The notes beneath the pieces were generated by a model. It was not told the origin of the DNA, made no database searches, and saw nothing but the letters and a program-made list of their open reading frames with translations. Positions 2,412 to 59,100 of a DNA stretch of 64,000 nucleotides are shown here, piece by piece. The stretch comes from a virus, in the IMG/VR virus record IMGVR_UViG_3300003323_000541, positions 1-64,000 of that record, one strand, 5' to 3'. The stretch's first letter is position 1; the number at the start of each line of letters is the position of its first letter. The position numbers were made by a program, and so were the translations under genes.

Positions 2412-2728
2412 CCCTTGAGTTGTTTATTTTTGAAATCAATTCTTTCGATTATTTTTTCTACCCCCACATGTTGAGCTAAAACTTCCAATCTAAAGAACAG
2501 ATCTCCACATTCTTCGATGATCTTGTCCTTAGGAGGTCTGAACTCCTTCTCTTTTGTCACACATTTAACAAGAACCTCACTTAGTTCACTCATCTCTTCG
2601 ATGGTCTTCATGTAATTGAAATTCTTGTTGTTTACACCTAAAATATAATCGACTGTTTCAGGGTCACAGTGAGACACAACTGATAGTCTTATTATCTTGC
2701 TCATTATTGGAGGTTTTAAGAGGTTCAT
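2375..2728 (-). CDS. MazG-like nucleotide pyrophosphohydrolase
   Basis: EEMSEL...IIEECGDL matches the ExxE...ExxD MazG/all-alpha NTP-PPase motif. Confidence 0.75.
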   Translation of the reverse strand: MNLLKPPIMSKIIRLSVVSHCDPETVDYILGVNNKNFNYMKTIEEMSELSEVLVKCVTKEKEFRPPKDKIIEECGDLFFRLEVLAQHVGVEKIIERIDFKNKQLKGCTGSSIKKRKL

Positions 2729-2816
2729 ATGGTAAAGGAGGGTAAAGTTCTTCCTTATGATTTTTAGTGGCTCTAATGAGCCTTAAAATGCGTTTCATTT
2801 CATTTGTTTTAATGTG

Positions 2817-2854
2817 AAAAGAAGAAGGGACCTTGATTATCTCAAAATCCCTTC
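2817..2854 (-). terminator. putative intrinsic terminator
   Basis: GAAGGGA...TCCCTTC hairpin followed by TTCTTTT on minus strand, downstream of ORF 2889-3341. Confidence 0.5.
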
Positions 2855-2888
2855 ATTGATTAAACCAACTACTCTATAAACCTTTACT

Positions 2889-3341
2889 TTAATATTGCAT
2901 GAACTTTCGTCCATAGATATACCATTGTTGGAGGATAGGTATACCAAATATGAATTCGGGCTTCTTAGGGAGCTCCATATAGGTTTTGTTTCCCCAGAAC
3001 ATAAGATCTTCATCTACATAGAACCGATACAGGAAGTTATCACCATTGCAGAAATCCCTGGACAAATAGTAAATATAGTCCAAAAGAGCTTCTGTGGTAT
3101 AGAATTTGAAAAAGGGTTTGTCTACGAAAGTCCAGTATTTTTCACACCGGCCGATTTCATAGACATAAGTATAACCACCTGTATCTACAATTTCGAATTT
3201 CCATGTATTTGTATGGGTGTATCCGAAATTCTGGTCAGATTGACACAAACATGTGTCCACAGGGTTATTTTTCGCTGAGATCAATCCATTCATCGAAATG
3301 GACATCAGCAGGCTCAGGAAGAGAATTTTCATCGTTTTCAT
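2889..3341 (-). CDS. hypothetical secreted protein
   Basis: N-terminal signal-like MKILFLSLLMSISMNGLISA. Confidence 0.7.
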   Translation of the reverse strand: MKTMKILFLSLLMSISMNGLISAKNNPVDTCLCQSDQNFGYTHTNTWKFEIVDTGGYTYVYEIGRCEKYWTFVDKPFFKFYTTEALLDYIYYLSRDFCNGDNFLYRFYVDEDLMFWGNKTYMELPKKPEFIFGIPILQQWYIYGRKFMQY

Positions 3342-3576
3342 TGTTTATTGTTTTGATAAAGTTGTTAAATTGTTTCAATTTACTTGAAGAGTTCACTATT
3401 TCCTTTACATTATTGTACACAAATACAATGAATATAAATGTACAAATAACCAGGAAAGGTATAGAAAAAGGGTCATCGGATGTAGACACTACACAGATCA
3501 TTACAGCTTCTATAAGTGTGTATATTCCTATGTATCCTACATTTCTCATGATAGCGAATAATATTTTTCTTTTCAT
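3265..3576 (-). CDS. membrane protein
   Basis: two hydrophobic segments. Confidence 0.65.
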   Translation of the reverse strand: MKRKILFAIMRNVGYIGIYTLIEAVMICVVSTSDDPFSIPFLVICTFIFIVFVYNNVKEIVNSSSKLKQFNNFIKTINNENDENSLPEPADVHFDEWIDLSEK

Positions 3577-3577
3577 A

Positions 3578-3724
3578 TTACCACCATTTGAGGATAAAAT
3601 GAACCCCTATATATAGCAATCCTACCCAGAATGCAACGTAGAGGATAATTGAAAAACATCCTCCAAACAGAAGGACATTCTTAGTCTGATCACCAGAGTG
3701 ATAGCGCATTGTTTGTGTTTTCAT
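3578..3724 (-). CDS. small membrane protein (48 aa; not in ORF track)
   Basis: MKTQTMRYHSGDQTKNVLLFGGCFSIILYVAFWVGLLYIGVHFILKWW; abuts next gene. Confidence 0.6.
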   Translation of the reverse strand: MKTQTMRYHSGDQTKNVLLFGGCFSIILYVAFWVGLLYIGVHFILKWW

Positions 3725-3777
3725 AAAATTTATAGAGTTTAAAGGTGTTTAATATTTAACACATCGAATGTTAAGTT

Positions 3778-3803
3778 CGAAACAAAATTCTTGTAGGATC
3801 GTT
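3778..3803 (+). promoter_or_regulatory. ECF-like promoter CGAAAC-N16-CGTT
   Basis: one of six identically spaced copies; a Bacteroidota-type TAnnTTTG (TATGTTTG, 3812-3819) follows. Confidence 0.7.
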
Positions 3804-3819
3804 TGTTTATGTATGTTTG

Positions 3820-3897
3820 ATATAATAGCCATACTATGCTTACTTAGCATAATCAAAATACAAACAGAGACTGCAGCTCTGATGATCGCTATTATAT
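3820..3897 (+). promoter_or_regulatory. structured 5' leader (three-way junction)
   Basis: 10-bp ATATAATAGC/GCTATTATAT closing stem enclosing TATGCT/AGCATA and CAGAG/CTCTG hairpins. Confidence 0.5.
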
Positions 3898-3931
3898 TAA
3901 GCTAATTAAATAACTTAATAACAAAAATAAC

Positions 3932-4579
3932 ATGGAAAGTTTAAGAAATGAGCCAGTTAATCTAAATTCAGGAAGTGTTCCACCTACCATTCTCACAACC
4001 GGTAATCAGGGTAGTGGTTATGGATTTGGTGAGGGTCTGTTAGGACTAGCTGCTGTTGCGGCCCTTTTTGGTGGTGGATTAGGTGGTTGGGGAGCCAATA
4101 AAGGAGGCTTTGTAGACTATGGTACCTTAATTAATCAACAAGGACAGTCCGATATCAGAAGGGATGTAGGTGAAACTGAATCTGAGATCAGAGAGACCTT
4201 GCATACACAAGCTATCGGTAATATGGGAGAATTCAGAGCTATATCCGATAAATTAGGTGATATCGATAAAACAGCTACAGTATCCCAATATGAGAATCAA
4301 ATTGCTACAAAAGATGCTACAGCATCTCTTAGTAATAAAATCGACTATGAGACCAATGCTATAAAGCATCAGAATTTCACCATGCAGGTTTCAATGGACA
4401 AGCAATTTGCTGACCTAAATCATCGTTTAGAGCATAAATTTAATGATCTTGTAGCCCGTGAACAAGCCACTGAAATTGAAAGACTACGTCGGGAACTTAA
4501 TGCTTCTGCAACAGCTCTCGCTAACCAGGATGTAATTCGTTCAGTAGTATCACAAGTGGTTGCAGCAATGACTCCTTAA
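3932..4579 (+). CDS. Gly-rich hydrophobic N-terminus plus coiled-coil protein
   Basis: GYGFGEGLLGLAAVAALFGGGLGGWG followed by a long helical region; opposite strand to neighbours, own promoter. Confidence 0.85.
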   Translation: MESLRNEPVNLNSGSVPPTILTTGNQGSGYGFGEGLLGLAAVAALFGGGLGGWGANKGGFVDYGTLINQQGQSDIRRDVGETESEIRETLHTQAIGNMGEFRAISDKLGDIDKTATVSQYENQIATKDATASLSNKIDYETNAIKHQNFTMQVSMDKQFADLNHRLEHKFNDLVAREQATEIERLRRELNASATALANQDVIRSVVSQVVAAMTP

Positions 4580-4617
4580 TCACAGTTCTAATTGTTTAAC
4601 CTTTTAAAATTAGAATT

Positions 4618-5208
4618 ATGATAAACAGAGAAATGCGTAAAGTACTAGAGCGAAATCTTCCTGGATCGGCTCTTGAATTCCTAACTGAGGAGTTCACTAA
4701 ACTCGAAGAATGCCTTATGAAGATAAAGCAAATGGAAGAGAAAGAGCTAATACTACTAGAACAAATAGCAGCTAAAGATGAAATGATCTTTCAACTCCTT
4801 GAGCAATATGCAATGATGAGCCAGGGAGGAATGGAAGGACTGATTGGTAGAGAGTTCACAAGTCCATCAATTGGATTTGAAGCTCGCAGAGGCTCTCCAA
4901 GATCCCGCAGGGGACGTTCAAGAACCAGATCTGCATTACCAATGTATCCTTATGAACCATATCCAGATCTCCCATACTTCGATGAATTCGATGAATTTGG
5001 AGAGGAAGAAGAGTTCTTTGAGAATCCTGATAGTCGACGAGGAGGTACTAGCTCCCGAAGAGGGGCTCGTAACAGACGTGGTACCTATTCTCAGGGACAA
5101 GGAGGAGGAGGAGGACAGGGTCAAGGTGGTGGTGGACAAAGTGGAGGAGGCTCCTCAGCGTCATTTGACCACGTTGTAATCAAGGGATTCTCCCCAGACA
5201 TACGATAA
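4618..5208 (+). CDS. coiled-coil plus low-complexity R/S/G-rich protein
   Basis: RRGSPRSRRGRSR, acidic/aromatic FDEFDEFGEEEEFFE and GQGGGG tracts. Confidence 0.8.
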   Translation: MINREMRKVLERNLPGSALEFLTEEFTKLEECLMKIKQMEEKELILLEQIAAKDEMIFQLLEQYAMMSQGGMEGLIGREFTSPSIGFEARRGSPRSRRGRSRTRSALPMYPYEPYPDLPYFDEFDEFGEEEEFFENPDSRRGGTSSRRGARNRRGTYSQGQGGGGGQGQGGGGQSGGGSSASFDHVVIKGFSPDIR

Positions 5209-6745: not shown

Positions 6746-6940
6746 TTAACCTATTTTGTTTGAGTAATGTTTAAGATGGAAATATTTGTCGCATTTTTTA
6801 CAGTAATATTGTGCATATTTTGATCCCGACACTCCTGTATGTCTTGATTTATTTCTGCATGTAGGACATTTTCTTTTTCTGAAGGCGAGAAATATTACTA
6901 TTATTACTGCAATAGCCCATAGTATTACAACGAAATTCAT
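6746..6940 (-). CDS. membrane-anchored zinc-ribbon protein
   Basis: N-terminal TM, CPTC...CKKC. Confidence 0.7.
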   Translation of the reverse strand: MNFVVILWAIAVIIVIFLAFRKRKCPTCRNKSRHTGVSGSKYAQYYCKKCDKYFHLKHYSNKIG

Positions 6941-6968
6941 AAGATTAAGATTTTTAGTTTAAAAATAG

Positions 6969-7042
6969 AACATCAAGGGAGATTCGAACTCACCAACTGT
7001 AAGGAATAACCCCCACTGCTTTACCAATTAAGCTACTGATGT
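6969..7042 (-). ncRNA. tRNA-like RNA with aberrant anticodon arm
   Basis: ACATCAG/TTGATGT acceptor, canonical TAGCTTAATTGGTAAAGC D-arm, TTCGAAT T-loop; anticodon arm GTGGGG-GTTATT-CCTTAC cannot form a 7-nt loop on a 5-bp stem. Confidence 0.7.
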
Positions 7043-7055
7043 TTCCGGGTTCACG

Positions 7056-7663
7056 TGGACCATGTCGGAGTCGCATGATTAACAAATAGTTTCCTACTTG
7101 GTTGGACTATATCATCACCTGTTCTAGGTGTTGGATGCTGTGGGCTCACCGTGGTGTCCCTAGTCTCTGAACCTTCTTACTTCTTCCAGTAAGCTCGGCT
7201 GCTGATTGGCATATAAAATAACATATTATTTTACTTAGCTTTCCAGCAATTCTTCCAATTTACAATCATATATCCCTATATGATGGGTCCGAAATTAAAC
7301 CGACGTCTTCTCCATTGCTAATAAATCATTTATAGGCTTATCTCATTCTAGTAAATGAGCAAAAAAAGGGAATGCTGTAGAATAATCCACAACACTCCCT
7401 TAAAGGGCTAACTGGCGTTAGCGCTCCACCACTTTATTTTTACGAAATAAAGAAAACGAAACGGGCGTTTTATGTTCCTTAGATTACGCCTCAACTAGCT
7501 CGGGAGCACCTACAAAAGCAAGTGCATCCTCGAAGGTGAAGTCAGAAACTTCATTAACTACGTTAGTAGCATTTGTTTGTTGGTATACATTTTATGGTGC
7601 TATACTACCATTGCACCGCCTAAAGATTTACTAGTCATATGTGAATCAATTCCCGTATGGCCC
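7056..7663 (-). ncRNA. ssrA: tmRNA (interrupted by a group I intron)
   Basis: GGGCCAT/ATGGTCC-A acceptor with G3.U70; pk1 (GGTGC/GCACC, TGGTA/TACCA); tag frame 7570-7484 ATNVVNEVSDFTFEDALAFVGAPELVEA*; 3' GAC-GTCGG-TT|CGACT-CCGAC T-arm restored by intron removal. Confidence 0.9.
7074..7297 (-). mobile_element. group I self-splicing intron (224 nt, no ORF) in the tmRNA T-loop
   Basis: core elements AATTGCTGGAAA (P), AATCAGCAG (Q), TTCAGAGACTA (R), GATATAGTCC (S); P7 GACTA/TAGTC; P1 GGTT/GACC with U.G at the 5' splice site; terminal omega-G. Confidence 0.92.
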
Positions 7664-7670
7664 AGTATTA

Positions 7671-7907
7671 TTAATATTCGCCGTTATTAAGATAACCTTT
7701 AGCAGTTGCTATGTTACCACTTTTATAATAAATTGTGAACATATCTCCATCTGTTTTACATTGACCGAGATATATAATTTTTTCAATGTCGTCAAAGTTA
7801 AGTTCATTCGTATTTTTCCACCCGTAACCTGAGTCAAGATGGGTTATAACAAGATTGTGTGAGGTGAAGCTGCTAGCCAGCTCTTTTACAATAATTACTT
7901 TTCCCAT
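7671..7907 (-). CDS. hypothetical protein
   Basis: 78-aa ORF. Confidence 0.65.
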   Translation of the reverse strand: MGKVIIVKELASSFTSHNLVITHLDSGYGWKNTNELNFDDIEKIIYLGQCKTDGDMFTIYYKSGNIATAKGYLNNGEY

Positions 7908-7909
7908 GG

Positions 7910-8077
7910 CTATGCTCTTTTAGTGAATTTAAATCTTCCACCTATGTTCACAGCAGGCTTAAGTTCTTCCTGAACTTCTTCCTCATCTCTGAAACTCTTT
8001 CTTTTCTTAGGCCATCCTTTGCTTACAAGAAAAGCTTTAAGTGTTTCAATTTTCTGTTGATTTGATGTTTTACTCAT
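7910..8077 (-). CDS. small hypothetical protein (55 aa; not in ORF track)
   Basis: MSKTSNQQKIETLKAFLVSKGWPKK...; A-rich initiation region, fills operon gap. Confidence 0.65.
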   Translation of the reverse strand: MSKTSNQQKIETLKAFLVSKGWPKKRKSFRDEEEVQEELKPAVNIGGRFKFTKRA

Positions 8078-8098
8078 ATTGTTTGTTGTTTGATTCGA

Positions 8099-8437
8099 TT
8101 AATAAAAATTGTTTTTCTGACATTCGGTTATATCAAAGGTTTTACCATTAGATAGAACTAGCGTAAGTTGATCGCTGTAATAACCGTTGTTACTGGCATA
8201 TCCTGGTATTTTTACGGTATGACCATTCAATGGTACAAGTTCAATTCCATAATCTTCGATTCTGTTAAAGAACTCACCATCTAAATCAAATTCAAGACCA
8301 TCAAAATCTTCAAGTGATATGTTGCTAAAATCCAAAAAATGACTCTCACAGCATTCCTGGTAATGTTCAGAATACATCATTACCCCGTTATCAAAGATTA
8401 TTCGATCATCTTTGATATTAATTACTTTTACATTCAT
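8099..8437 (-). CDS. conserved phage protein (HxQxCCE...NGYYS)
   Basis: HYQECCESH and SNNGYYS motifs. Confidence 0.8.
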   Translation of the reverse strand: MNVKVINIKDDRIIFDNGVMMYSEHYQECCESHFLDFSNISLEDFDGLEFDLDGEFFNRIEDYGIELVPLNGHTVKIPGYASNNGYYSDQLTLVLSNGKTFDITECQKNNFY

Positions 8438-53100: not shown

Positions 53101-56100
53101 GGATATTAATTCAGTTAAGGATCAAATAGGCGAATTAAAGGCCCTTAGAGCTATTTTCTCCAAGAGGACAGATGAATCCCTTACTAAAGAAGAGAAAGTC
53201 TCTGTAATAGCTTCTATTGACTCTGTATTGGAAAAATTAGATAATATCAAAGATGAGATTGAAAAAAGGATTGAGAATCGCGAGAGAACTAATACTGAGC
53301 TTTGGGAGCAAACAAGTGTGGGAACCTTTTCTCAACTTGGTTATGATCTGGATAATAATATGGTTAATAATGAACCATTGTATAATATTATCAGAACTCC
53401 GATTGATGCTGTTGATCTTGGATTGGTTGATAATATATTAAGCAGAAGTAAACAAGATAAGAATGTAGTTCTTGCTGATTACATCAAGCAAAAATTATCG
53501 GAGTATACCAAAGGAGATAAGAAAGCATTTATTGCTCAGATTGATTCTATATACAATGAGATATACGATGATGTAATTGAAAGTAAAAGAATTCAGTCCA
53601 GAGACTTTTCCAATAAGGATAAAATCATATCACAATATAAGTTAAATCCAAAAAGAGGATTCAATGAACTATTAAAGATAATCAGAGATCAGATGGATCT
53701 TGAGGTGGACAGTCCATTCTCTGTGTTCATCAAAGATCAGAATCTTCCTAAATTCAGAAGAGCAATCCAGAAACAAGATAGGACCGATTCAGTTGTTTCT
53801 TCTGAAGAGATCATAAATATAATCGATAATCATCAGAGGTTATCTGATCTGTATGATCTTAAAACAGATATAAACAGTGACTACTCTATTATACAGGAGA
53901 TACTAGATGAACAGTCTATAGCATCTAAACTAAAGGAGGGAGATCTTGTACCATCTAAACAACAGTTAATAGCAATAAGAGAAACAGTGAAGTGGTATTT
54001 CACTTCAAAAGAAAATGAAGCATTTAAGAATTGGGCATATCTTAAAGGAACAGCAGGTACGGGTAAAAGCTCTGTCATCTCCACATGGGTTAAAAAGCTT
54101 ATCAATCTTAATAATGCTGAAATATATGGAGTGGGACATAATGATATTTCGTCGGAGAATATCAACCGTCTTCTTGGAACTTCTGCTAAAACTTCTATTG
54201 CGGACCTCTTAGGTAAACTTCGTGATAACAGTCTGTCTGATAAAACAAAACTGATTATATTAGATGAGGTCGCTGCTCTTTCTACAAGAGAATTAATTGA
54301 AATTGACAATGCCCTTATTGCTCATAATAAATGGAGATTGGATAACAAAAAGAATCAAGTTAAGATTCTTTCCTTAGGAGATCCTAATCAAATAACCAAA
54401 TATCCGACTCCTCCTATAGAGAATTCATCTGAGTCATTTGGTGAACAAGGTACACTGTACTCCACTGAAGATTTTATTAATATAACCAATATATCTCCAT
54501 TAACTATTGTCTATAGGACAGATGTAGCTCCTATCACGGAATTCGCAAATAAATTCCTGCAGAAGAAGCTTGACGTTAGAAGTGAACCTGTGTATGTTAC
54601 ATCTAATGTAAGTAATATAGATACAGCTGTGGCTTCTACGGGTGTTTATGGAGCCAAGGAATTTAAAAAAGATCTATTAAGGTATCTTAACAATCAAACA
54701 TTAACCGATGGTAAGAAACGGGTGGTGATTGTTAATCCTGAAGATATCGATAGTTACAAAAATTTTATAGCTAATGCAGGAATAGATTTATCTAAAATCG
54801 AAGTAATAGATCCTGTAGATGCACAAGGTCGGACCATTGATGAAGTATTCCTTTCCTTAGAATCTAAAGGGAGCGTAAGATCTACTGTATTCTATAATCC
54901 TCAAATGTATGTATCCTCATCCAGAGCTAAAACATTCTTGATGATTGGAGAGCTTAATACAATAAATGTATTTGATGCTGATGTTGCTGCTAAAAAAGAG
55001 GATAGATCAAAAGAGAATACCCAGAGATTAAATAACTTCAAAGAGGACAGAGATAAAGAAAAAGAATTACTCTCTGATCAGATAGGTAATCAAACGGCGA
55101 AAAAGACCTTTGCTCAGAAAACTGAGGAAACGAACCCTAAGAAGGATGATCAGGTAAAAGATCCTACAGAAATAGAGAAAGAAGAAGATTTTGAGGTAAC
55201 ACAGGAAGAAATAGAATTAGCTATATCTTCTCACGAAACTAATGACGATATTCAATCTATTGAGCAATCAGATGTAATGCAAGAGCCTCTTGCTAATGTA
55301 AAAGTATCTGAAGGAAAAAAAGCTCATATATTATCTGAACCTACATCATCTTCCATAGCTAAAGAAAATACCCCAGGTGTTAAAGCAGGTGATAATGTCT
55401 TGTTTATAAAGGTTCGTGATACTAATATTGATAACACTAAAGATGTTATAAAGGTTGTCCAAAAAGCTGAAGAAGAGGATGAATACAGGATAGTTGCTGT
55501 ATTAAATAACAATGAGCTTAACGGTCCATTTTCGTTCCTTCGGTCCATGTTATCAACAGATAGTAAAAGAACTATAGTTGAACCTATTAGAACAGAGTCT
55601 GGTAATATAGTTATCAGAAAGTCTAATATCGATCCTGTATATAAATCAAAAGTAGTCTCAGCAAGAACTTTAAGTTACGATTATTCTTCAGAATCAGTTC
55701 CACTATCTCAAGAAGAAAAAGAACGGACCATTGATAAATTCATGGACACCTTCTTCAGAAAAGAGCGTAGACCTCAAGGACTTCGTTATAAGGTTGAGAT
55801 GTATACCAATAATGATATCAAGAAGCTTAGGAATAATAACAAGATTCCTGATGAGTTCATAGTGGACCCTGGTGTTCCATATATCCACATAACAAGTCCT
55901 AAAGCAAAAGGATCTAAATCCTTTGTGACTAAAGATCAATTCATCAGACTATCTCCTGCTAAATATAATATCAATAAGCATTCAGAGTTATTTACCCCTC
56001 TGCAGGATTTTATTTCTCTAGCATCTGATCTTGAAAATATTACAAAGCAATCTATAGGTGATCCTCTATTTAATAAAGCAATCAGAGACGTTGCCAATGG

Positions 56101-59100
56101 ATTTTATGATACCCCTGAGGTGGAGTCTTCAAATATTGATGTTAACAATCAGCAAGTAGTAGATCTCTGTAAGAGGGTATTTGATCTTGTCTACCAATTA
56201 CCACCTGAAGAAAGTCAAGTGGTCCGTAAGGGTGAGACAGTAAAAGTGAAAGATGATTCACCAGAAGCTCCTTTAACAGATAAAAACGGAGTAACAAGAC
56301 CTCGTAAAATATTAAACGTAGAAACCGAAGATGGACAGAAGATAGCTGTATTTGAAGGAGGAAGAAGAATACCTTTCTCTGAACTGGAATGGTCCGGAAA
56401 AAGAACTGCAGGTCCTGCTCAACATGCACTTAATCTTTTAGCTCTGTCAAACCTCACTGCAGGAGACTTTGGTCTTGCTCGTATTACCAGAGTTAAGGTT
56501 GGTGATAAAACCCAATATATCAGAACAGGTAAATCTCTGTTAGGAGACTCTACGGTAGGTATTAGTTCATTTACATTAAGACCTTATTTACAACGATTGG
56601 AGGGAAGAAGACAACGTCTTGATCCTTCCTATAAGCCTATATCATCTACAAGCGTTAATTTAATTAAGTCTCAATATTCCGAAGAAGAGTTTCAGAATTT
56701 GAGTACATTAGTTGGATCATTACCATCTTTATATGATCTTAAAATGCTTCTGGACTTTGATTCACAGACAGGAGACTCTGTAGTTAATCAAGGATTTGGT
56801 TTAAGAGTGCCTATTCCCAAATCTAAGAGAGTAGCAGATCAAAATGTTCCTCTTGATAAATTCGACAACCTTGAGGATTATTTAACTACCAATTTTGAAG
56901 GAGTTATCCCAACACAGGTTGTTATTGAGATTGATAATGATTCTGCTGTAATAGAAGATTCGAATCCTAAAACTTCTGAAGATGAAGAAAGATTAGGCGG
57001 AAGAGATATTGAAGATGATCTGTTTGGTTCATGGGGATCAAGATTATTAACCGAAGAAAGAGCAGAAGGTAAAGACCTTGGTTATGAACTTCAAACCAGA
57101 GAGGTTCTTAACTACATTAAATCATTACTTCCAAATATCAACGAATCTCAACTTAAATTCCTTAGCTCAACAGAAATGTTGAAGATAACCAAAGGGATTA
57201 AGGCATATGGCTTGTGGAGAGATGGAGTAATCTACTTACAAACTAATAAGGACAATAAGGTCAATACACGTGTTATAAGACACGAAGTATTCCATGAAGT
57301 ATATAATAATTACCTTACTAATAAAGAGCGCTCTAAGCTTCTTAAAATAGCTCGTAGGGACTATTCTCTAAATGATCAGACAGATGTTCAGGTGGAGGAA
57401 TTCCTTGCGGACAAATATCAGGAATGGGAAACAAAGAAAAGTAAGCCCACTTCATTTATAACCTCTATATTCAAGAAGATTAAAGATCTGTTCGATTTCA
57501 TCTTTAATAATAACTCTGTCATTGATCAATACTTTGATAAGATTGATTCTGGTTATTTTAACAAATATTCATTAGATCCGTTAAGAGGAGAAAGATACTC
57601 TTCACCGGTAGTGAAGAAATTTGATACTGTAGAAGGATTCAGAGAGGCTAAGAGATTGTTGTTGAAGAAACTTGACGACTATAAGAACCCTACAAAGCAG
57701 TCTGATTCTCATAATCAGTTTCCTGTAGTTGAATCGAAGTCCCAGCTGTTAAATGTCCCAATGACTACATCTGAGGCTATATACTACACTATGAGGGATA
57801 TTAAAGTTGGTCTATATACATTAACTGAAAGATATAAGGAAAGAGAAGGTCCATTAACAGAGAAAGAGAAACACAGACTTGATGCCCTCACACGTTTATC
57901 AGATCCTTCTGTATTTAAAGAAATGCTAAAGGATATTTATCCTACATATCAGAATGCTAATCTTTCTTTCATTGATAGACTTGACACTCATTTTGATCCT
58001 AATAAATACATTAGTCAAGGTATAACAGAAGGTGAAACTACAGAAGACTTTGAGGATGAATGGGAAAATCTGGATGAAGATGTAGCCAATCTTTATGAGC
58101 AGATAGTAGAGGGTGATCGCATTAACTGGGAGAACAGGTTAACTGAATCTGTTAAACATTTCTTATCATCTATTCTTCTAAATGGAGAGCCTATTAATTC
58201 TAAACAAGCGTATGCTGTATTAGGAAGAGTTTTAACCAATATAACAGGTAATAGTGCATCTGAGAAGATCAAGCAAATCAAACAGGCTTTTCTTACTTTC
58301 AAATCACAAAGTAAGACTACTATAGCAATAGAGAATGAGCTTGTCAGACTGATATCATTCTTAGATGAAGAACAACCTGTTCCACAATTGAAGAAGATAG
58401 TTTCTAACTTTGGTACATTCAAATTCTCTGCAGAAAATTCTACCAATCTCGATTTGTTCGAATATCCAACCCAACGGTTAGTTAATGGTAAACTAGAACG
58501 ATATATCGTTAGAGTTAATAAATCAGGAACCGACTCTGCTGGTAATAAGATCAATATTGGAACATCTGCATTCTTTCGTAAAATAAAGAATTTGGTAGAT
58601 CAGCACAATAAAGAGAATAATCTCAAAGATGAATTTGATTTAACAGATCTTAAGGTTCTTTATCTAAGGGCTTATTATGCTAACACTTTAAATGAGATGA
58701 TGGCATCTTTGAACTCTCTTAGAACAAAGAACGTATGGTATGGTCTTAAGACCTATGATTACGGTAAACCTAAATGGAGGTATAGTCCTTTTGAAAAAGA
58801 GATTGATAAAGCTCTTCAATTAAGTGTTATCAAGGATAAATTATCTCAGAAATATCCTGTTCTCCAGAACTATTACAGGTCATATTATAACGTTAAATCT
58901 GCTCAAGATAAGAAGAACCATTTAAATAACCTTTTCAAAAGTCTTGGTCTTGGTAAAGGAGATATAGCGATGACCTACTCACAGGCTGTGACCATTCATG
59001 AAGATATACTTAGAATGGTAGATGAATTTGAGAACAGCAGGAAAGAGGCTAAATTAAATCCTAAGACAATTGAAAATGAGGACGGTGTAACAGTTGAGGT

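Follow-up and report, generated by a model that had tools for sequence, protein, structure and literature searches.

The minus strand of the window, the whole 64,000-nt stretch of DNA that was analysed, most probably encodes at positions 7663-7056 the ssrA (tmRNA) gene of a crAss-like phage, with a T-loop that is split by a 224-nt group I intron containing no ORF. The window comprises the first 64 kb of a 99,901-bp IMG/VR virus genome, which has direct terminal repeats and is rated as 100% complete. The phage genes in the window include those of a crAss-type major capsid protein (MCP; PF23898 / phrog_11589) and a portal protein (phrog_6547), and the genome in which the gene resides is that of a complete crAss-like phage of 99.9 kb, whose closest relative by MCP is 70% identical. 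The tmRNA assignment is supported by the architecture of the predicted RNA and by comparison with related genes, and not by the score of a tmRNA model. The phage genome contains no SmpB gene; therefore, the host SmpB would be used.

The gene occupies most of a 730-nt minus-strand stretch without ORFs of at least 50 aa, which is bounded by the minus-strand ORFs 7671-7907 and 6746-6940. This gap is situated in a tRNA cluster and also holds a tRNA-like gene. The 5' end of the tmRNA gene is located 8 nt past the stop codon of the upstream ORF 7671-7907, and no obvious promoter of its own was recognised. Since the upstream stop codon is so close and the tRNA-like gene follows after 14 nt, the tmRNA is probably cut from a longer transcript, and the tRNA-like gene is probably located on the same transcript. 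The tRNA-like gene has a 6-nt anticodon loop, GUUAUU, and a T stem with one mismatch, and its anticodon could be read either as UUA (ochre suppressor) or as UAU (Ile). The predicted features, in the direction of transcription, are as follows.

7657..7663, minus strand: 5' strand of the acceptor stem, GGGCCAU, with the 5' end of the gene at 7663; 7 of 7 pairs with 7063-7057, including G3.U70
7644..7653, minus strand: D-loop-analogue motif GGAAUUGAUU of the tRNA-like domain; an identical 10-mer occupies the same place in L017 and L049
7618..7634, minus strand: 5' strand of the P2 helix, pairing with 7337-7318 in blocks of 10, 4 and 3 bp (17-bp interrupted helix)
7581..7617, minus strand: pseudoknot PK1, H-type, with two 5-bp stems, S1 GGUGC/GCACC and S2 UGGUA/UACCA
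7484..7570, minus strand: tag reading frame with a GCU resume codon, 28 codons and a UAA stop, encoding ATNVVNEVSDFTFEDALAFVGAPELVEA
7464..7490, minus strand: helix 5, GGCGU/ACGCC, with the UAA stop in its loop; pairs checked, present in the MFE fold
7342..7452, minus strand: four hairpins in the place of PK2-PK4 (7452-7432, 7422-7407, 7399-7368 and 7359-7342), from the MFE fold
7318..7337, minus strand: 3' strand of the P2 helix, pairing with 7634-7618
7298..7304, minus strand: 5' strand of the T stem, GUCGG, and the first two T-loop bases, UU; pairs with 7068-7064; end of the 5' exon
7074..7297, minus strand: group I intron of 224 nt without ORF, delimited by RF00028, P1, P10, omega-G and the alignment of homologues
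7056..7073, minus strand: 3' exon, consisting of CGACU, CCGAC, AUGGUCC and the discriminator A; pairs checked
6968..7042, minus strand: neighbouring tRNA-like gene, 14 nt downstream of the tmRNA gene; ARAGORN tRNA-?(Stop|Ile), Rfam tRNA 36.4 bits

The tRNA-like domain is assembled from both exons. The acceptor stem consists of 7 bp (GGGCCAU/AUGGUCC) with G3.U70, and its two strands are 366 nt apart once the intron is removed. In the region 250-480 nt upstream of the intron, GGGCCAU is the sole complementary 7-mer with a G.U third pair. The intron splits the T-loop after its second base, between UU and CGACU, and joining of position 7298 to 7073 produces the T arm GUCGG-UUCGACU-CCGAC with a 7-nt loop, followed by AUGGUCC and A. 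Variants of the D-loop-analogue motif, namely GGAAUCGACU, GGAUUUGACA and GGUAUUGAUC, are found in other relatives. The domain thus comprises an acceptor with G3.U70, a T arm and a D-loop analogue, and has no anticodon arm. CCA is not encoded, which is also the case in L017, L018 and L294. The T stem covaries among the relatives that carry the intron (GAGGG/CCCUC, CUGGG/CCCAG, GUGGG/CCCAC, AUGGG/CCCAU); throughout this family both the acceptor and T stems covary, while G3.U70 is constant.

The intron was identified by the Rfam model RF00028, which matched positions 7083-7308 of the minus strand over its full length (1-253) with a score of 86.3 bits (E 1.3e-20), above the curated threshold of 50 bits. 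When the whole phage genome was searched with this model nine candidates were scored, and the tmRNA intron was the sole report at E<=0.001. The Rfam match stops at G7083, and the T-loop is rebuilt only with intron ends at 7297 and 7074. These ends are consistent with the splice site helices: P1 is formed between GGUU, at the very end of the 5' exon, and GACC, at positions 9-12 of the intron, so that U7298 (position -1) is opposite G9, while the CGA at the start of the 3' exon pairs with intron bases 6-8 (UCG) to form P10, contiguous with P1. The last base of the intron, G7074, is omega-G, and both ends fall in the same alignment columns as those of 22 distinct homologous introns. No ORF of at least 50 aa is present within the intron on either strand. 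RNAalifold analysis of the intron together with 14 homologues, about 65% identical to it, predicted 59 pairs covering P2, P3, P4, P5, P6, P7.1, P8 and P9, of which 32 have compensatory changes on both sides; the covariation term for the 15 sequences is -10.2 kcal/mol. The intron also contains the conserved core sequences CAGAGACUA and GAUAUAGUC, which are typical of subgroup IA, a type of intron often found in phages. The database sequences closest to its core come from cultured marine phages that infect Pseudoalteromonas, Vibrio and Cellulophaga, in which they are situated in ribonucleotide reductase and DNA polymerase regions. Positions 7074-7297 are therefore assigned to a group I intron of the self-splicing type with defined boundaries, which is predicted to splice at these sites. 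An earlier note on this DNA, made by reading the sequence, had proposed an alanine acceptor with G3.U70, a pseudoknot pk1, a tag frame and a T-loop split by a 224-nt ORF-less intron with a U.G pair in P1 and omega-G; all of these elements were found on the minus strand between 7663 and 7056, and the intron was confirmed by the RF00028 score, the P1 and P10 pairings and the alignment.

The body of the predicted RNA follows the order of elements in tmRNA. The P2 duplex has an energy of -24.4 kcal/mol compared to -15.2 +/- 3.0 kcal/mol in shuffled sequences (z -3.1), and none of the 500 shuffles matched it. The H-type arrangement of PK1 arises in 64 of 5000 dinucleotide shuffles of the segment (1.3%, p about 0.013). 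Five of the seven relatives tested share this arrangement, which was also found by hand in L060, where its spacing to the tag frame is equal; an Rfam viral pseudoknot model weakly matches 7585-7609, within PK1. The tag frame starts 10 nt past PK1 and remains open from GCU to the UAA in the loop of helix 5, although a frame of such length is by itself weak evidence. Its resume context, AAAU before G, is that of L183, and the stop context UAAUCUA is common to the window, L017 and L049. The predicted tag is long, with abundant acidic and hydrophobic residues, and its C-terminal end, ...FVGAPELVEA, is not the usual ..LAA or ..AA. Mycobacteriophage Bxz1 likewise encodes a long, acidic tag. The MFE structure predicted for the spliced RNA of 384 nt (-134.9 kcal/mol, z -7.6 relative to mononucleotide shuffles) recovers the acceptor stem, P2 and helix 5, and in the PK2-PK4 region it contains hairpins alone.

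A homologous intron occupies the identical T-loop site in about 30 tmRNA genes of viral or metagenomic origin: 12 are IMG/VR loci (11 contigs and also L021, the P1 of which is a variant), and about 18 are located on contigs from metagenomes. The first, loose junction pattern gave mostly chance matches, which were sifted by blastn. In this family the intron is 220-229 nt long (224 nt in the window, and also in L047, L049, L060 and others) and the 5' exon 346-390 nt (366 nt in the window). Among the loci found here the intron family is seen in tmRNA T-loops only. RF00023, the Rfam tmRNA model, was positive in two of the six IMG/VR loci scanned, L047 (67.7 bits) and L060 (63.8 bits), and ARAGORN recognised a tmRNA in 13 of 28 relatives after in-silico splicing, missing the other 15. 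The tags of the intron-form relatives, including ANMETLGLLKGSEVAVA and ANATVGHFVTEGATVAA, are similar in character to the predicted window tag.

Several other features of this family were recorded. In eleven loci (L122, L183, L185, L189, L198, L199, L200, L202, L203, L204 and L207) the base directly before the CGA of the 3' exon is A rather than G; the sequence reads ...UAUUUA before CGACUCC. In this subgroup either the terminal base of the intron is not G, or the splice sites are other than those that rebuild a 7-nt loop. The L119 locus, on a 149.7-kb viral contig, contains a free-standing 182-aa ORF of the HNH / endonuclease VII type (7678-8226, minus strand in the locus; phrog_3322, E 2e-18) just downstream of the 3' end of the intron-form tmRNA gene at 8328. 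L116 appears to carry a similar HNH gene, as judged by similar DNA past its tmRNA gene. In L047 a 683-aa ClpA/ClpB-like double AAA+ ATPase is encoded at 2647-4698, about 2.7 kb from the intron-form tmRNA gene, on a viral contig; such proximity of an unfoldase gene to that of a tagging RNA is perhaps not accidental.

Genes for tmRNA without an intron were identified in the phage group of the window. Among 22 IMG/VR records encoding a capsid protein about 53% identical to that of the window, three crAss-like records (L294, L295 and L296) contain intron-less tmRNAs that score 72 bits with RF00023; in L294 the gene is located at 1501-1882, directly after tRNA-Arg(UCU). The occurrence of these genes indicates that tmRNA genes recur in this group. 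They share with the window the T-loop UUCGACU, and their tags of about 37 residues end in ...DVEAPVLELV, which the end of the window tag resembles; otherwise, they are not confidently alignable to the window tmRNA. No intron-less allele of the window tmRNA itself was found in the phage records, viral contigs and metagenomes searched. A home-made scan for tRNA-like domains in four near-complete crAss-like relatives (G002, G004, G006 and G009) found no further tmRNA, while the controls were recovered. In one of these genomes, G009 (L292, L293), a group I intron match of 58 bits, over the threshold, and a partial one 450 nt on are located at record positions 55296-55563 and 56015-56112, away from any tmRNA.

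None of the model searches reported the window tmRNA. ARAGORN found no tmRNA in the window, in ten alternative in-silico splice variants at settings down to -ps10, or in the window member of the spliced family set. Rfam reported no tmRNA in the contiguous window at the gathering threshold (RF00023 / clan CL00001), nor at E<=10 with truncated matches allowed in 7298-7700, which covers the 5' exon, and in 6900-7800; unlike the window, L047 and L060 are matched by the Rfam tmRNA model through the 5' exon alone. An nhmmer profile built from 21 family 5' exons did not match the window gene either. In blastn searches of phage records for relatives of the window tmRNA only the intron core was matched; exact patterns of its 5' end and spliced 3' end were absent from the viral contigs searched, as was the window-specific junction from the metagenomes searched, and the closest MCP relative in the tmRNA search, a 21-kb fragment, contained no close relative of the gene. 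No close relative of the tmRNA body was thus found in these searches, and consequently its internal helices are without covariation support.

These results agree with the expectation, expressed in the earlier note, that standard tmRNA finders would miss the gene. The same note had named the tmRNA score of the spliced sequence as a test of its proposal, and this test gave a negative result with ARAGORN on the spliced RNA and with Rfam on the 5' exon. The result was discounted because the failure of ARAGORN extends to 15 of the 28 spliced relatives and to all three Rfam-positive crAss-like tmRNAs, those of L294, L295 and L296. The tmRNA assignment was retained despite the negative models because the same intron is present at the same site in recognised tmRNA genes. 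The sequence of the window tmRNA has evidently drifted past the reach of the models, while the architecture and spacings are kept.

The divergence of the body could also be a sign of decay. Such a tmRNA, in decay or turned to another use, would have retained its intron and tRNA-like domain but lost the function of its messenger part, and the RNA would be either a relic or a decoy for SmpB or AlaRS. This possibility agrees with a body too divergent for Rfam, ARAGORN and the family profile, the non-canonical end of the tag, the lack of clear PK2-PK4 and the weakened P1, and the decoy version has a precedent in the TLD-only RNA of mycobacteriophage DS6A, a proposed inhibitor of host trans-translation (cited in PMC4131195 and PMC11915505). 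However, P2 and PK1 are preserved, as are the GCU codon at the right distance, the stop-free 28-codon frame and the location of its stop within a hairpin loop, and relatives recognised by the models have equally long and unusual tags, making decay of the messenger part unlikely.

Loss of the intron's activity would inactivate the gene whatever the state of its exons. P1 in the window has only 4 bp, the fifth pair being C-C instead of the G-C found in every relative, because the T stem GUCGG does not follow the pattern G/C-N-GGG while the internal guide sequence is still GACCC; this mismatch fits an origin of the intron from a tmRNA gene of the GGGUU type. In addition, P10 has 3 bp, no homing endonuclease is encoded in or near the window tmRNA gene, and the HNH gene next to the L119 tmRNA has no homologue in the phage genome. 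On the other hand, the core helices P2-P9 have been kept by compensatory changes relative to introns that are about 65% identical, and the U.G pair, omega-G and both conserved core sequences are present. It is thus quite improbable, more so than decay of the messenger part, that the intron splices no longer or too poorly.

Finally, the lack of a model-based tmRNA score would be expected if the locus encoded a long, tRNA-like non-coding RNA of some other kind, or if an acceptor pairing had arisen by chance upstream of a T arm that contains an intron; this is highly improbable in view of the acceptor 7-mer with G3.U70 at the family spacing, followed by the 10-nt family motif, of P2, PK1 and the frame arranged in tmRNA order, and of an intron family that was seen here in no other kind of site.

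For a tmRNA gene with a functional intron, the preferred reading, the following pathway may be proposed. The gene would share a transcript with the tRNA-like gene and the small ORFs on either side, and this longer transcript would be cut by tRNA-processing enzymes. The intron would fold, bind guanosine and excise itself by means of P1 (GGUU/GACC), in which U.G marks the splice site, and P10 (CGA/UCG), and ligation would restore the T arm with the junction GUCGGUU-CGACUCCGAC. The ends would be trimmed by host RNase P and 3' processing enzymes, CCA would be added, and the host AlaRS would charge the RNA through G3.U70. Together with host SmpB, the RNA of about 384 nt could then enter stalled ribosomes and add Ala and the 28-residue tag ATNVV...APELVEA. 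Excision of the intron is a prerequisite because before ligation there is no T-loop, and hence no tRNA-like domain for AlaRS, SmpB and EF-Tu. Thus, it is a sound inference that rescue by this phage RNA would depend on splicing.

A tmRNA with a group I intron in the T-loop is an established third form of the gene, and the 2025 tmRNA database lists 883 unique intron-form sequences from 21 phyla with four T-loop subsites, of which the subsite at T-loop position 3 is reported from the class Bacteroidia only, in 9 genomes (PMC11915505). The earlier statement that group I introns in tmRNA are rare is therefore out of date, the more so as the subsite of the window is among those catalogued (PMC11915505). 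The exact exon-intron junction of the family studied here was found on 11 viral contigs. A search of 185,579 bacterial and archaeal species-representative genomes gave 50 matches to this junction, all of them chance matches in unrelated, mostly coding-looking sequence. This distribution hints that the position-3 intron-form tmRNAs are mainly phage genes. The crAss-type capsid protein was not found in any of the 12 intron-form viral records searched, nor were Terminase_6C and SmpB in the five of these that were searched for them; the CheckV completeness of the intron-form viral records implies genomes of roughly 300 kb. The intron therefore seems to be shared between unrelated phages.

A broader interpretation may be offered only tentatively, and is at present rather doubtful: that the position-3 intron-form tmRNAs are essentially a phage-borne lineage, whose intron has spread among unrelated Bacteroidota phages, and that these phages re-purpose trans-translation with their tmRNAs. 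If so, one small intron would have spread between crAss-like phages of about 100 kb and phages of roughly 300 kb, and the 'Bacteroidia' records of the tmRNA database would represent phage DNA inside MAGs. Phage tmRNAs with non-degron-like tags of 17-37 residues would then turn trans-translation to another use in the infected cell, such as by displacing the host tmRNA in the competition for SmpB or by directing truncated proteins to some other fate, as opposed to boosting rescue. Independently of this interpretation, tags that are so long and unlike degrons prompt one to ask how a phage benefits from its own trans-translation RNA, and phage annotation pipelines built on ARAGORN (e.g. Pharokka) will under-count phage tmRNAs. 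No report of an intron-form tmRNA in any phage, or in a crAss-like phage, was found in the literature searched, which did not cover all journals. The gene would thus extend a documented gene form to crAss-like phages; it leaves the known mechanisms unchanged and represents an unusually divergent phage-borne case of this form.

The window gene shares with the catalogued intron-form tmRNAs a one-piece organisation, a T-loop interrupted by a group I intron, U(-1).G in P1 and omega-G (PMC11915505). Its subsite, between UU and CGA, corresponds to position 3, reported from Bacteroidia, which is the host group of crAss-like phages, and its intron is short and without an endonuclease gene, as are about 96% of the catalogued introns (PMC11915505). 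Unlike the bacterial cases, it is located in a complete phage genome, its body is not seen by RF00023 or ARAGORN, and its predicted tag has 28 residues and no ..AA end. Phage tmRNAs are known from mycobacteriophages, including Bxz1, Cali and Catera, and from Bacillus phage G (PMC4131195). These resemble the window gene in belonging to a lytic-type phage that has no SmpB gene and depends on host partners, but no intron was described in them and both the phage and host lineages are unrelated to those of the window (PMC4131195). The intron itself is comparable to the small ORF-less phage introns of the T4 td/nrdB type, with which it shares the CAGAGACUA and GAUAUAGUC cores; however, those introns interrupt protein-coding genes, whereas the window intron is inserted into a structured RNA, within a tRNA-like loop.
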